Virus record (IMG/VR): IMGVR_UViG_3300029267_002792
Source of the DNA: a virus
DNA: 64,000 bases
Strand: one strand, 5' to 3'
In this document: positions 3,454 to 63,785 of the stretch, in pieces
How the letters are laid out: the number at the start of each line of letters is the position of its first letter
Numbering within the stretch: position 1 is the stretch's first letter
Translations under genes and position numbers: made by a program
Notes under the pieces: model-generated
Seen by the model: only the letters and a program-made list of their open reading frames with translations
Database searches by the model: none
What the model was told of the DNA's origin: nothing

Positions 3454-3722
3454 GGTCCATCCTCGCGCGTGCGGGAGAACCGCCTGAAGCGGAGAAGATC
3501 GCCCTGGTCCATCCTCACGCCTCACGCGTGCGGGGAACCGGGCACTGTAGCAGACTCCGCTCTCACAGCACCGGTCCATCCTCACGCGTGCGGGAGAACC
3601 ACACGCCCGTGCGGAACTTCGAGGAGCGCGACGGGTCCATCCCCACGCGTGTGGGGGAACCTCACCGCCGATGATGTACAGGCCCTCGGAGGACGGTCCA
3701 TCCCCACGCGTGTGGGGGAACC
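3454..3722 (-). CRISPR. Mini-array 1: 5 type I-E-like 28-bp repeats, 4 spacers
   Basis: Repeats (+ strand GGTCCATCC(C/T)C(A/G)CGCGTG(C/T)GGG(G/A)GAACC) at 3454, 3506 (34 bp, slipped), 3573, 3634, 3695; spacers 24, 33, 33, 33 bp; 61-bp period. Confidence 0.95.
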
Positions 3723-3855
3723 CCTGTGCCACGCTGAGCCGAAAAAAAACGGTTCTCCTCCACACACATGAGTTCCTCGTTCGAGACGAGGCAAGAACAC
3801 CGCGCTCTCACGCAGTGCCACCGACTGGAATATCGGCAAGCGGTGGTATTGTCAA
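3723..3855 (-). promoter_or_regulatory. Conserved CRISPR leader, copy 1, with TTGACA box
   Basis: Near-identical to the reverse complement of 20177-20286; TTGACA at 3855-3850. Confidence 0.85.
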
Positions 3856-3869
3856 CTATTTTTTAGGCT

Positions 3870-4403
3870 TCAGAACAGGTCTTCTGTCGTGCCGATCTGA
3901 GGGGACGTTTCCCGATCTCGGGCGAACGGAGACTTCCGAATGACTTCCAAGGCTGACGAAGAAGTGCTCACGACGTAGACCCGCACGTTGGTGGTGTGCT
4001 CGGAGTGGCTGCCGAGGAAGACCTTCAACCCCAGCGGTCCAAAAGGGCCGGCAATTCCATCCTCGCCGTCCACGAAGAAGACCTTGACCCGTCGCGTGGC
4101 GTCGTACTCGCTCGGATCTGTGACGTAAGGCTTTCCCGTCTTTTTATCCGTCCGGATACGACTTGCGACAGATCTATAAAGCAGCTCCAGGACTTCCAGG
4201 GGCACAATCCAGTCGGACGGGTCCGGAATCCCTAATGTCCCTGCCAGCCGAACTTTGGTGGGTTTGTCACAGCAGGGGCAGCGACCCACTGAGCCTTCGT
4301 AGATCAACCTTTCCTTGAAACGAGCTTTGGACTTCGACATCTCCACTCTCTGACTCAAAGGAGCTTTAGATTCCAGTATCGCCCATCGAACCCGAGCTAC
4401 CAT
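3870..4403 (-). CDS. Hypothetical protein
   Basis: 177-aa ORF abutting the vWA gene. Confidence 0.7.
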   Translation of the reverse strand: MVARVRWAILESKAPLSQRVEMSKSKARFKERLIYEGSVGRCPCCDKPTKVRLAGTLGIPDPSDWIVPLEVLELLYRSVASRIRTDKKTGKPYVTDPSEYDATRRVKVFFVDGEDGIAGPFGPLGLKVFLGSHSEHTTNVRVYVVSTSSSALEVIRKSPFARDRETSPQIGTTEDLF

Positions 4404-6316
4404 CAGCCTCCCCGCAGGTAGCTAACGAAGGCTCCCGTCACGAGCTGCACCAGATCGTGCCCGAATGTCTGATCCTTCATGATGCGCCAATTTCGAGGAG
4501 GCCCGAACATCTTGCCCATCTCTTTCGCGCCTACGTCGCTCCCGATCAGGACTCCCGTCACTCCGATGCCTTTGCGCCTTGCGTTCTGGATGTTCATCCG
4601 AACAAACGACATGAGCGCTCGGGTACCGTACTGCGCACCATCGTTCCGGACGAATATCGGGAATCCGTCGGATATGACAAACAAGTGCTTTCGATCTGTG
4701 CCATCCTCCAGGTCTTTCAAGGCAACGCGAATGGCGGTGTGAAGAGGTGTCGTGCCCCCAACCCTGGAAGTGGCTGACTCGAAGACCTCCTGTCGGGGGC
4801 GAAATCGGGTGATGTCGACCTGCCCATCTTTCAAAGACTGAAATCCCCATACCCGGCTGGTGACGAACGGAAAGTCCAGCGCCCGGGAGATGATTCGACA
4901 AGCTCTCTCAGCCTGAGCGGTCCGGCGCCCTTGCATAGAGGACGATCGGTCTACTAGTACCAGCGTCCGGAAGCCTCGGCCAAAAGAGTCGACAGCGAAG
5001 ACTGGAAGAGGTTCGCCCGTCATACGACGAGTGATGTAGGCGGGGACGTCTAGCCGTGTTCCAGCGTCCTCGAGAGTGTTGATTCGGCGCCCCAGAACAC
5101 GGTGGAACATGGCTCGGAGCCTCTTCACGGTGTTCTCGTCCTCGTCGTTTAGGAGCGAGCTATCAGAACGTGGCCCGGATGGTTCCACGTCGGTGAAGAC
5201 CACCTTGGCATAGCCCTCATGGCGAATGCGATCGTCGTGATTGAACGCGTTCTTAGTCGCATTTCGGGCCTTGTCCACGAGGCGAAGCATCTGGGCCGAG
5301 GAGGCATCGAGAATGTCTTCGAGCTTGCTCGCGTTTTTCACGTTGGCCGTAATGGCAGCCTGAGCCCGCCTGTCGGCAGCTGCTTCCTCTCCGCGTTTTT
5401 TGTACTTCGACTCTCCAACCTCGCTGGAGATGTCAGATGGAGCCTTTCCAAGACGATTGATCGCGTCCTGAAGGGCCTGGGATCGCTCTTTTAGCCCGGC
5501 ATCAACCTCGGGAGGCTCCCAGGTTTCGTCAGGATGGTCCTCAGACGGCTCTTGCGGGTTGCTGCCCTCTCCGGCCTGCTGCTCGTCCTCGTCCCCTGAC
5601 GCCCCATCAGAGCCGCTCCCGAGCTGCGGGGCAGGTCCGGGCGGAGGGTCCTCCCCTCGCGATTCTCGGATAATTTCCGACACCAGCTGTACTACGAGCC
5701 ACTTCGCCGCTACCAAGCACCCGAAGTAGTCCCGGAAGCGTACCTTCCTCAGGGCTTCCTCCATGTAGGGCACGAAGCGGTCAAGCTTCCCGGGGGGTAT
5801 CGGGTTGCCGCTCGCAACGCAGATGAACAGGGACAGAAAGTCTTGGTGAGCCAGGTTCAGGTGTGCGGCCGACTCCTCCCGTTTCATACGGCGCATGATG
5901 GCCCCGGAGCCACGGTAGAGCAGGCCCCAGAGGGAGATGACGCGCTCGTCATCAAGGACGCCAACGATACCTTCCAAACCCGCCCTCAGCATGCGCTCGT
6001 TGATGGTGAGGTGAGCCTTTTTGGCGACCTGCCCGATCTTCCTGGAGTACTCCTCGATGAACTTCTGCTTCGCTAGGAAATCCGACTGGAACAGGATGTG
6101 GGAGATCTCGTGCTCACAGTACTGGTACGCCCGCGGGTGTTGGAAGGGCACTTCAATCAGGTACCCGTTGGTTCTCGCCACCCCGTCCTGGGAGTTCTTG
6201 AGCCAGAGACGTCGCTTCAGGATGCCAGAGAACACGTCTACGGTTTTGTAGCACATGGCTTTGGGGGACGAGTCCACCTCAACATTGATGAGTGCATCCA
6301 CGTCGATGGTCGACAT
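4403..6316 (-). CDS. vWA-domain protein (CobT/NorD/CbbO-like partner of MoxR ATPase)
   Basis: Start MSTIDVDAL after AGGAGG; HEISH motif; acidic linker; MIDAS DRSSSM, GGTTPL, VISDG. Confidence 0.9.
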   Translation of the reverse strand: MSTIDVDALINVEVDSSPKAMCYKTVDVFSGILKRRLWLKNSQDGVARTNGYLIEVPFQHPRAYQYCEHEISHILFQSDFLAKQKFIEEYSRKIGQVAKKAHLTINERMLRAGLEGIVGVLDDERVISLWGLLYRGSGAIMRRMKREESAAHLNLAHQDFLSLFICVASGNPIPPGKLDRFVPYMEEALRKVRFRDYFGCLVAAKWLVVQLVSEIIRESRGEDPPPGPAPQLGSGSDGASGDEDEQQAGEGSNPQEPSEDHPDETWEPPEVDAGLKERSQALQDAINRLGKAPSDISSEVGESKYKKRGEEAAADRRAQAAITANVKNASKLEDILDASSAQMLRLVDKARNATKNAFNHDDRIRHEGYAKVVFTDVEPSGPRSDSSLLNDEDENTVKRLRAMFHRVLGRRINTLEDAGTRLDVPAYITRRMTGEPLPVFAVDSFGRGFRTLVLVDRSSSMQGRRTAQAERACRIISRALDFPFVTSRVWGFQSLKDGQVDITRFRPRQEVFESATSRVGGTTPLHTAIRVALKDLEDGTDRKHLFVISDGFPIFVRNDGAQYGTRALMSFVRMNIQNARRKGIGVTGVLIGSDVGAKEMGKMFGPPRNWRIMKDQTFGHDLVQLVTGAFVSYLRGG

Positions 6317-62353: not shown

Positions 62354-62526
62354 CCTGTGCCACGCTGGGCCAAAAAAAAAACGGTTCCCGTAAACACACA
62401 CACGCGAGTTCCTTGCCGCCTCCGGCAAGGCAAGTACGCCTCGTATCGTAGGGGAGGCGCCATCGACTGGAATGTCGACTCGTTTGACACGCCAATGAAC
62501 CTACCAGGTAACAGGTGGATTGTCAA
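62354..62526 (-). promoter_or_regulatory. Diverged CRISPR leader, copy 3, with promoter
   Basis: Same three hairpins with different stem sequences; TTGACA(62526)-17-TAGGTT. Confidence 0.85.
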
Positions 62527-63472
62527 GAGAAAAGTTTTCCCGTCCCGCCCTGTTCCGAGGACAGCATCCGACGGCTCGCGCTCAAAGCCTGGTTGGCCTT
62601 CTTGATCGTATGCGCGAACTTGAGCAGGCAGTCTTCGGAGGCTCCGAGGTCGTCGTGCCGCTGCATGACCTCGACGCACCGGACTAGGGCTTCCGAAACG
62701 AGCTGGTAGGCCTCGGCCCGCTTGTTGGTCTCGTCTGTCATGGTCGGCCTAGTCTATGGCGAGGAGGGAGGTGTGTCAAGAGCAAAGAAGAAGGACACTA
62801 CTCCTTGTCCCGACCCTCGACACCCCTATCGTGGGAGGGAACTGTCGCGCCGTGTGGCGCCGGCCTGACGAACTGTGCGGCCCGACCTCATCTCCAGAGC
62901 TACAATGGCCGCGTCCAACGTGTCCACGGGAACCGACTTCCACGTCCCCTGCAAGTCCTGCACTAGAAACCGCATGCCGTCCGCGGTCACACTCGCCTCA
63001 ATAGACCAGCGCATGCCGTCTCCGAGCCACGAAGTGCGACCAACACGCTTGAGGGTGAGGGGAAGACTCATGACGTTACCTTGTACACGTGCCCGAACTG
63101 AACGAGCTGAACGAGCCAGATACGAACGGTCTCCCGCAATCGCTCCATCCGATCCGGGTTGTCCCTGTGCCAGTAGCTGAACTCTTTCAAGTCAGCGTGC
63201 AGATCGTGAACAACATCTTCCGGGAAGACCCACCCCTCGTCATTGATGACAAGGTCGTAGGTGTCGGTAAGCGAAAACTCCGGAATGGTGGGAACAGAGT
63301 CCTGCGCATGAGGATCGAAGGCGAGGGGGATTGAGCCCGAATCGGACGCTGGCGGTGGTTCCGTGTCAGCCTCGGGATTAGCAAGAGCGCGTTCGAGGAT
63401 CTCCAAGGCATGCTTCGGATGCCCCTGACGAAGGAGCCCCACAGCTCTCTCAACCTCAGATCGAAGTGACAT
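62523..63472 (-). CDS. Three hypothetical ORFs between arrays 3 and 4 (62523-62741, 62826-63071, 63068-63472)
   Basis: Minus-strand ORFs; promoter motif at 62775. Confidence 0.62.
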
Positions 63473-63574
63473 GCAGCCCTACCGTACTACGGTCAGGTGA
63501 TCGGGTCTACTCACCTCGAGAAAGCGTGAGATGCCCCAGGGTCCACACCAGCGCGCGATCCCGTGCGAGAAGAG

Positions 63575-63785
63575 GGTCCATCCCCACGCGTGCGGGGAAA
63601 CCTCGTCCTCTTCCTGCTGCGAGGCGAGATACTGCGGTCCATCCCCGCGCGTGCGGGGAAACCTCCTTCAGAAGCTGTTGGAGCTGGGCGACACTCGGTC
63701 CATCCCCGCGCGTGCGGGGGAACCTTTTCGCTCCACGCGGAGGACCACCTGTTCGTCGGTCCATCCCCGCGCGTGCGGGGGAACC
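63575..63785 (-). CRISPR. Mini-array 4: 4 repeats, 3 spacers of 33 bp
   Basis: Repeats at 63575, 63636, 63697, 63758. Confidence 0.95.

Follow-up and report, generated by a model that had tools for sequence, protein, structure and literature searches.

Among the described phage systems built on short palindromic repeats that are clustered and regularly interspaced (CRISPR), the closest published case to the locus reported here, likened by its description, is Cas12r of the Thermus Lalka phages. This phage effector is derived from TnpB and is accompanied by a short array with 29-bp repeats, which share elements of the host type I-E repeats (bioRxiv 10.64898/2026.04.20.719267). Cas12r has 564 aa and one array beside its gene, with spacers of 31-33 nt; its A-rich protospacer-adjacent motif (PAM), ARG, overlaps the type I-E PAM. 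It works with CRISPR RNA (crRNA) alone, and no trans-activating crRNA (tracrRNA) was found. The phage is without adaptation genes, and the authors propose that Cas1-Cas2 of the host type I-E system inserts the spacers (bioRxiv 10.64898/2026.04.20.719267). Here we analysed a 64,000-nt stretch of viral DNA, IMG/VR record IMGVR_UViG_3300029267_002792 (the whole stretch is called the window below), which carries four short arrays with type I-E-style repeats. A sequence-only reading had described them as cas-less mini-arrays with own promoters and leaders, which co-opt Cascade of the host. We consider it probable (roughly 0.7) that they are not orphan arrays, and that they serve as guide-RNA cassettes of a TnpB-derived (Cas12n-like, type V-like) nuclease of the same phage.

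According to our proposal, a cassette would consist of a promoter, a scaffold RNA of ~120 nt with three hairpins and an anti-repeat, and a short I-E-repeat array. The scaffold would correspond to the omega-RNA which the tnpB 3' end encodes, but separated from its guide. Pairing of the anti-repeat with repeat positions 1-20, in cis or in trans, would rebuild the terminal stem of the omega-RNA and leave the repeat tail GAUGGACC and the downstream spacer as the guide. The TnpB protein (473 aa) would then bind this two-part RNA and cut matching DNA. New spacers would most likely be inserted by the host type I-E Cas1-Cas2, which would explain the I-E-like repeat, the 61-nt period and the leader-proximal junction. 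Like the Cas12r phage, the window phage has an I-E-style array and, in the DNA analysed, no adaptation genes. From Cas12r it is distinguished by the scaffold with a covarying anti-repeat before every array, by the overlap of the scaffold with the tnpB 3' end, and by its shorter protein and its many dispersed cassettes.

Cas12n (type V-N) is a miniature, TnpB-like monomeric effector, which uses a tracrRNA and a crRNA and a 5'-AAN PAM (PMC12216341). The two-part RNA proposed here follows the same plan, and the D-E-D triad is aligned in the phage TnpB. In contrast to Cas12n, the phage scaffold overlaps the tnpB 3' end as in an insertion sequence (IS) element and is copied before distant arrays, and the phage TnpB is shorter than RdCas12n. 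By analogy, an A-rich PAM of the AAN type would suit spacers chosen by I-E adaptation. That a miniature type V system borrows type I adaptation was already raised for V-F1 with I-B (10.1101/2024.04.09.587696).

With the TnpB/omega-RNA (OMEGA) systems of IS200/IS605 elements the phage locus has in common that the scaffold starts inside the tnpB 3' end and that the RuvC D-E-D residues and the zinc ribbon are present. Unlike in OMEGA, the guides would come from I-E-repeat arrays and not from flanking DNA, and tnpA is not listed within ~7 kb. Virus-borne cas-less mini-arrays are short, have bacterial-type repeats and no nearby cas genes, depend on an effector of the host and mostly target related viruses (PMC11656645). 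In contrast to them, the window phage encodes a candidate effector and a dedicated scaffold RNA, and no viral targets were found in the searches given below. The linkage between effector and array and the covarying anti-repeat, two traits of type V systems with a tracrRNA (Cas12n- or TranC-like), were both found here.

Scaffold RNAs of the arrays and the tnpB 3' end

Each of the four arrays is preceded by a leader of ~120 nt (Table 1). All four leaders align, and the differences between them are compensatory changes in three hairpins (H1, H2 and H3). Leaders 1 and 2, an inverted pair at a distance of 16.3 kb, share 99% identity over 114 nt, in line with the duplicated cassette family which was noticed from the sequence alone. 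After the third hairpin, each leader harbours a sequence complementary to repeat positions 1-20. Since the pairing covers the non-palindromic 5' end of the repeat (GGUUC with GAACC), this is a genuine anti-repeat rather than a direct copy that has degenerated. The predicted anti-repeat:repeat duplexes range from -26 to -35 kcal/mol (-34.6 kcal/mol for scaffold 1 and -26.2 kcal/mol for scaffold 4), and none of 300 shuffles per cassette was as low. The partner of the anti-repeat in the minimum-energy folds is the first repeat that is complete, in array 2 the second one. A U-run follows the anti-repeat in five of eight arrayed cassettes; three are without it.

Between anti-repeat and repeat 1, an 18-nt linker, GGCTCAGSNYGGCACAGG, is conserved in all cassettes (3723-3740, 20268-20285, 62354-62371 and 63786-63803). 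Through it, a CAGGTC-like motif stands ~14 nt ahead of the repeat, an arrangement similar to that in I-E leaders of actinobacteria; this motif is the only likeness of the scaffolds to those leaders. The linker may act as a spacer-integration signal.

The same phage was located in public assemblies by exact protein look-up, from where we walked outwards. The contig Ga0309772_1000058 (193,864 nt) of the Joint Genome Institute (JGI) represents the same phage and is collinear with the window, with an identity of 99.99% over the last 10.9 kb and of 99.7% over 10.7 kb near array 1. The term cas-less is valid for the window only: about 9.8 kb past its end there is a gene for a 473-aa TnpB, encoded by the strand that also carries arrays 1, 3 and 4. 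The protein has the Pfam domains HTH_OrfB_IS605, OrfB_IS605 and Cas12f1-like_TNB. Its RuvC residues D226, E317 and D413, which align with D287, E386 and D484 of RdCas12n, and the zinc-ribbon cysteines C384, C387, C403 and C406 are invariant in the TnpB clade described below. The best solved relative is RdCas12n (9J09; E 2e-23), and this match covers residues 128-424, i.e. the RuvC/TNB half only. The gene table contains no transposase gene (tnpA) within ~7 kb of tnpB; transposon ends were not looked for.

The omega-RNA of IS200/IS605 elements is encoded at the 3' end of tnpB and starts before the stop codon. A covariance model of the scaffold (R1) was made from seven promoter-driven leaders, four in the window and three in the adjoining DNA. 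Built without the tnpB copy, R1 matches the adjoining DNA at L024:8787-8899 over its full length (42.5 bits, E 1.7e-10). The tnpB gene ends at L024:8847, and the R1 match begins 60 nt before the stop codon. Directly 3' of this scaffold there is an array of nine repeats, and three further promoter-scaffold-array cassettes lie within 10 kb. In the window R1 detects exactly four copies; with 80 bacterial loci harbouring the same repeat core it gave nothing below E = 0.2. Judged by these matches, the window leaders are not ordinary I-E leaders, because R1 matches the tnpB 3' end and not the bacterial loci with the same core. The view that they are leaders of I-E arrays thus gave way to another: each is a structured RNA that contains a covarying anti-repeat and has the omega-RNA region of the tnpB 3' end as its homologue.

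The first scaffold hairpin is situated inside the tnpB frame (L024:8787-8847), and the codons for the I-P of a C-terminal T-x-I-P-x-G-K motif form its invariant loop, AUUCCA. As the clade conserves this motif, the stretch has a role in the RNA and in the protein alike. A search of IMG/VR with the H1 pattern resulted in 16 matches, all within genes and none with repeats, which we attribute to chance. In the eight-repeat array upstream of tnpB, one spacer is tandemly duplicated together with its repeat (L024:7070-7102 and 7131-7163).

Upstream of tnpB, ~10.2 kb past the window end, a scaffold in an unsplit form was detected (L024:7262-7425, core 7309-7383). It has an own TTGACA-17-TATGTA promoter, contains H1 and one more hairpin, and runs into the ribosome-binding site of tnpB. 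At the place where the anti-repeat:repeat duplex would be, there is a 6-bp hairpin with a CGUG loop, which is followed by ACUGGACC; the R1 score is 10.8 bits. Possible roles of this copy are that of an omega-RNA with a single guide and that of a tnpB regulator. Together, the phage has at least nine scaffold copies (at least eight with arrays and one solo, unsplit copy), which are spread over at least 80 kb. The presence of unsplit and split copies in one genome is what one would expect after the division of an omega-RNA into a tracr-like and a cr-like part, and in this respect the locus may resemble the TranC transposon-CRISPR intermediates.

Covariation and conserved linkage in the TnpB clade

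In a search of 5.8 billion proteins, the phage TnpB belonged to a small clade with 45-56% identity. We collected the DNA of six other clade contigs from different samples (L136/L137, L138, L139, L140, L221 and L222). All seven clade genomes, i.e. this phage and the six others, have an R1 scaffold at the tnpB 3' end, an anti-repeat and I-E-like arrays with a 61-nt period, and in several of the six relatives a second cassette is present just upstream of tnpB. At loci of more distant TnpBs (23-56% best-segment identity), the I-E-like repeat was found in none of 104 (24 from IMG/VR and 80 from metagenomes), and R1 had no match in the 24 IMG/VR loci, the only set so searched. The metagenome loci came from a scan with the TnpB alignment, which, owing to generic motifs, gave only TnpBs with 30-42% identity and was used as negative control. 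Of the relatives, L139 (251 kb) has a Ro60 gene directly behind its tnpB-array unit, and L222 originates from JGI 3300017987, a sample in which the window phage was also found.

The anti-repeat covaries with the repeat. With a fixed 15-nt register and one cassette per genome, 85 of 105 positions are paired in the cognate combinations; derangements reached a mean of 77.3 and a maximum of 81, and none of 1854 attained the cognate count. At four positions A-T and G-C pairs are swapped between anti-repeat and repeat. The most divergent repeat, that of L139, forms a duplex of -28 kcal/mol with its own anti-repeat, compared to -16 to -21 kcal/mol with the others. The hairpins behave similarly: in 17 scaffold copies 93% of the cells are paired, and both sides have changed in 13 of 19 pairs, while slid controls gave 27-48%.

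The variants among the 38 repeats of the phage were compared with both structures in which a repeat can take part. The pair with the cognate anti-repeat is kept at 38 of 44 variant sites, the pair of the I-E hairpin at 27 of 40. The earlier statement that the repeats keep their hairpin and the AUGGACC handle is mostly correct; for the hairpin it is limited by the latter count. The commonest variant, G19A, is present in eight of the nine repeats of the tnpB-adjacent array, where it breaks the C8-G19 pair of the hairpin and turns a G-U pair with the anti-repeat into A-U. The 8-nt repeat tail next to the spacer, GATGGACC, shows three substitutions in 38 repeats. Further, the truncated first repeat of array 2 (20286-20305) has lost its 5' arm and kept the spacer-proximal GGGGATGGACC intact, a loss that would block Cas6e-type cutting upstream of the only spacer of this array. 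Together, the repeat variants, the tail and array 2 speak for pairing of scaffold and repeat in a duplex, the guide then lying 3' of the repeat in the manner of TnpB and Cas12.

These findings are of interest for several reasons. Phage arrays which look orphan can belong to a compact nuclease encoded tens of kb away, and surveys of cas-less arrays may misread them. Unsplit and split scaffold forms side by side provide a natural series for the origin of type V systems from TnpB. The phage also allows a test of whether an effector without adaptation genes can live off the spacer acquisition of a host I-E system. For practical use as a compact editor, a nuclease of 473 aa is also attractive, with its defined scaffold and a PAM that is perhaps rich in A. 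It is tempting to go further and to speculate, with low confidence, that a single TnpB is served by at least nine scattered units and that the I-E repeat is kept to hijack the host Cas1-Cas2, so that the arrays possibly arm both TnpB and Cascade. If so, and we hold this for equally doubtful, the phage would harbour a distributed, parasitic CRISPR system with two effectors, caught at the split of an omega-RNA into tracrRNA and crRNA.

Competing explanations for the arrays

The arrays have genuine type I-E features. The window repeat, in the transcribed strand GGTTCCCCCGCACGCGTGGGGATGGACC, is 28 nt long, of type I-E style, and recurs with a 61-nt period. In the window 13 matches to the repeat pattern were counted at up to three mismatches, with 0.00 expected from 100 shuffles; an irregular repeat (3506-3539, with a 7-nt internal duplication) and the 5'-truncated repeat of array 2 were added by reading. 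The 28-29-nt length, the GC-rich hairpin and the 3' handle of the AUGGACC/AUAAACC type are those of I-E arrays. A 23-nt repeat core, CCCCGCACGCGYGGGGATGGACC, is unchanged in 85 bacterial loci, usually in long arrays with a 61-nt period, and the I-E assignment of the sequence-only reading is thereby upheld. Since these loci belong to many phyla (Acidobacteriota, Actinomycetota, Gemmatimonadota, Alphaproteobacteria and others), the host is not identifiable from the repeat, and its prediction by repeat match, as had been suggested, failed; the closest full-length repeat (27/28) is from an Acidobacteriota metagenome-assembled genome. Rfam at gathering thresholds detected only tRNAs in the window and no CRISPR-DR family.

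The spacers resemble those of I-E arrays as well. Across five genomes of the TnpB clade, 60 unique spacers were counted, and 58 of 60 spacer units have the 61-nt period, compared to 92% in bacterial arrays that share the repeat core. Of the 60 phage spacers, 25 start with C, 23 with G, 12 with T and none with A; in the bacterial arrays the first base is C in 439, G in 145, T in 62 and A in 7 of 653. The window arrays contain 11 distinct spacers (ten of 33 nt and one of 24 nt) of the 31 counted in this phage. The mean G+C content of the spacers is 63%, compared to 60% of the whole window. Arrays 1, 3 and 4 are on the minus strand and array 2 on the plus strand.

On this basis one could suppose that the mini-arrays exploit the Cascade-Cas3 of a host I-E system, with Cas6e cutting the transcripts, Cascade targeting rivals, and the leader being merely regulatory. 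Virus-borne mini-arrays served by host effectors are an established phenomenon (PMC11656645), real bacterial I-E arrays have an identical repeat core, the hairpin and the AUGGACC handle are mostly kept, and the period and the first-base bias are those of bacterial I-E arrays. However, such use would leave unexplained why a homologue of the leader is present in the omega-RNA region at the 3' end of tnpB and none was found in 80 bacterial I-E loci, why the unit is conserved with the TnpB clade in seven of seven genomes, and why the anti-repeat covaries with the repeat. Moreover, common repeat variants break the hairpin and keep the anti-repeat duplex, and the first repeat of array 2 is without the 5' hairpin arm. 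We therefore regard host Cascade as an unlikely user in place of TnpB; it could be a second, parallel one. Of the original idea of cas-less arrays that co-opt Cascade, the part which stands is that the phage carries real I-E-repeat arrays, and the part which does not is the missing effector, since the phage encodes a candidate and the unit is conserved with it.

Two further explanations dispense with guides altogether. Solitary phage repeat units can act as RNA anti-CRISPRs (PMC11656645), and array 2 is nearly such a unit; the many promoter-driven copies could then be Racr-like decoys, whose repeats soak up Cas6e or Cascade, or whose anti-repeat, which would in principle pair with host repeats of the same family, blocks the processing of the host pre-crRNA. 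A decoy does not need diverse 33-nt spacers, yet 60 unique ones with I-E-like acquisition signatures were found in the five clade genomes, and neither the strict linkage with an intact TnpB nor the omega-RNA position would be explained, which makes decoys very improbable. We give still less credit to the idea that the cassettes are decaying, now functionless remains, left either from host arrays that had been captured or from right ends of IS200/IS605. The irregular repeat and the 24-nt last spacer of array 1, its deleted -10 region in this record, the truncation of array 2 and the lack of detected targets would fit with decay, but compensatory changes in the three hairpins and the anti-repeat across copies and genomes, conserved phage-type promoters, an almost invariant 8-nt repeat tail and the intact catalytic residues of TnpB speak for function.

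The TnpB-based explanation, which we prefer, has its own difficulties. The use of the window arrays by TnpB is suggested by homology and linkage, and the nuclease gene is outside the window. The repeats retain a good I-E hairpin and handle, and host Cas6e and Cascade could also use the transcripts. The pair counts are somewhat inflated, since the alignment used for covariation had been fitted to the model. For cas genes, the inspection covered the window and the gene tables of ~30 kb beyond it; cas genes may lie in the other ~115 kb of this ~194-199-kb genome. Arrays 3 and 4 are the same in four assemblies, i.e. there is no spacer turnover between samples, and ongoing acquisition can be inferred only from the spacer diversity between arrays and between phages. 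Finally, the searches of phage, plasmid, IMG/VR and candidate-host sequences gave no protospacer, and hence no PAM or target-adjacent motif (TAM).

In these searches, the spacers had no match in the INPHARED phages and repeat matches only in the PLSDB plasmids, and five candidate host genomes gave only matches driven by the repeat. Three leader-proximal spacers have no exact 22-mer in IMG/VR. Self- or cross-targets were not found in any of the DNA collected for the analysis, and none of the bacterial spacers from 80 loci with the same core matches the phage.

Features of the window and phage context

The positions of the cassette parts are listed in Table 1. That there are four arrays with 11 distinct spacers and no cas gene in the window, as stated from the sequence alone, was confirmed by the repeat count, by reading of the sequence and by family scans of the open reading frames (ORFs). 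Among the matches listed for 73 window ORFs of at least 80 aa (25 of 37 Pfam and 25 of 68 NCBIfam families) there was no Cas or TnpB family, and the gene tables of ~30 kb beyond the window do not list a Cas family either.

Table 1. Positions of cassette parts in the window
Feature	Position	Strand	Description
-35 hexamer, array 1	3850-3855	minus	TTGACA; -10 region gone in this record
Scaffold 1	3723-3841	minus	H1 (loop AUUCCA), H2 (GAGA loop), H3; R1 141 bits
Anti-repeat, scaffold 1	3751-3772	minus	Followed by U8 run and 18-nt conserved linker; pairs with repeat 1 in the minimum-energy fold
Array 1	3454-3722	minus	5 repeats: 3695-3722, 3634-3661, 3573-3600, 3506-3539 (irregular), 3454-3481
Spacers, array 1		minus	33, 33, 33 and 24 nt
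Promoter-like element, cassette 2	20130-20158	plus	TTGACA-17-TAATCT
Scaffold 2	20173-20285	plus	99% identical to scaffold 1; anti-repeat 20242-20263; R1 135.2 bits
Array 2	20286-20366	plus	Half repeat 20286-20305, 33-nt spacer 20306-20338, repeat 20339-20366 ending GGTCT
Promoter-like element, cassette 3	62498-62527	minus	CTTGACA-N15-TGGTAGGTT
Scaffold 3	62354-62483	minus	Divergent; compensatory changes in H1, H2, H3; R1 106.8 bits
Anti-repeat, scaffold 3	62383-62408	minus	Followed by U10 run
Array 3	62143-62353	minus	4 repeats, 3 spacers of 33 nt
Promoter-like element, cassette 4	63908-63937	minus	CTTGACA-N15-TGGTAGTTT
Scaffold 4	63786-63893	minus	Anti-repeat 63806-63824, without U run; R1 114.8 bits
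Array 4	63575-63785	minus	4 repeats, 3 spacers of 33 nt

The suggestion that each array has its own promoter holds in so far as a promoter-like element is present upstream of each; that of array 1 is without a -10 region in this record. The motif CTTGACA-N14-16-GGTA occurs seven times in the window (10255-63937), always on the minus strand, compared to 0.03 expected, and is likely a promoter class of the phage itself, common to cassettes 3 and 4. A generic sigma-70 scanner run on the window called none of the promoter-like sites of the four cassettes. Leader 1 has in the window a 29-nt deletion, which includes the -10 hexamer (3842-3849 compared to L017:10566-10594), while the region is intact in the JGI contig of this phage. 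The T-run of leader 3 is different in length by one T between the two assemblies. Both could be either population variants or assembly differences.

Public assemblies break at the cassettes. The JGI and ENA contigs stop within leader 1 or shortly past it (window 3700-3729), and two contigs from other samples begin exactly at the last base of the window, 64000, ~60 nt upstream of the promoter of cassette 4. Evidently, repeated cassettes confuse assemblers.

The window appears to be part of a tRNA-rich huge phage, and most of its ORFs have no known family; megablast of its first 20 kb against isolate phages gave no match. From ~430 nt downstream of array 2, 36 tRNA genes are located on the plus strand (20795-32050) with few ORFs between them. 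One of these (26003-27802) encodes a 599-aa Ro60/Rsr-like RNA-binding protein (vWA_Ro60, NCBIfam Rsr, phrog_850). A peptide deformylase and UDG are also encoded in the window. Two blocks of 12-nt periodic repeats, which are 185 nt apart, are situated at 48688-49153, where candidate ORFs overlap one another; this suggests a repetitive, probably acidic, protein segment. At 52754-52864, an intergenic region contains about eight tandem 13-nt units, in which CTCGACACATGCY alternates with CTCGAAGTGTGCT and which look like iterons or a binding-site array.

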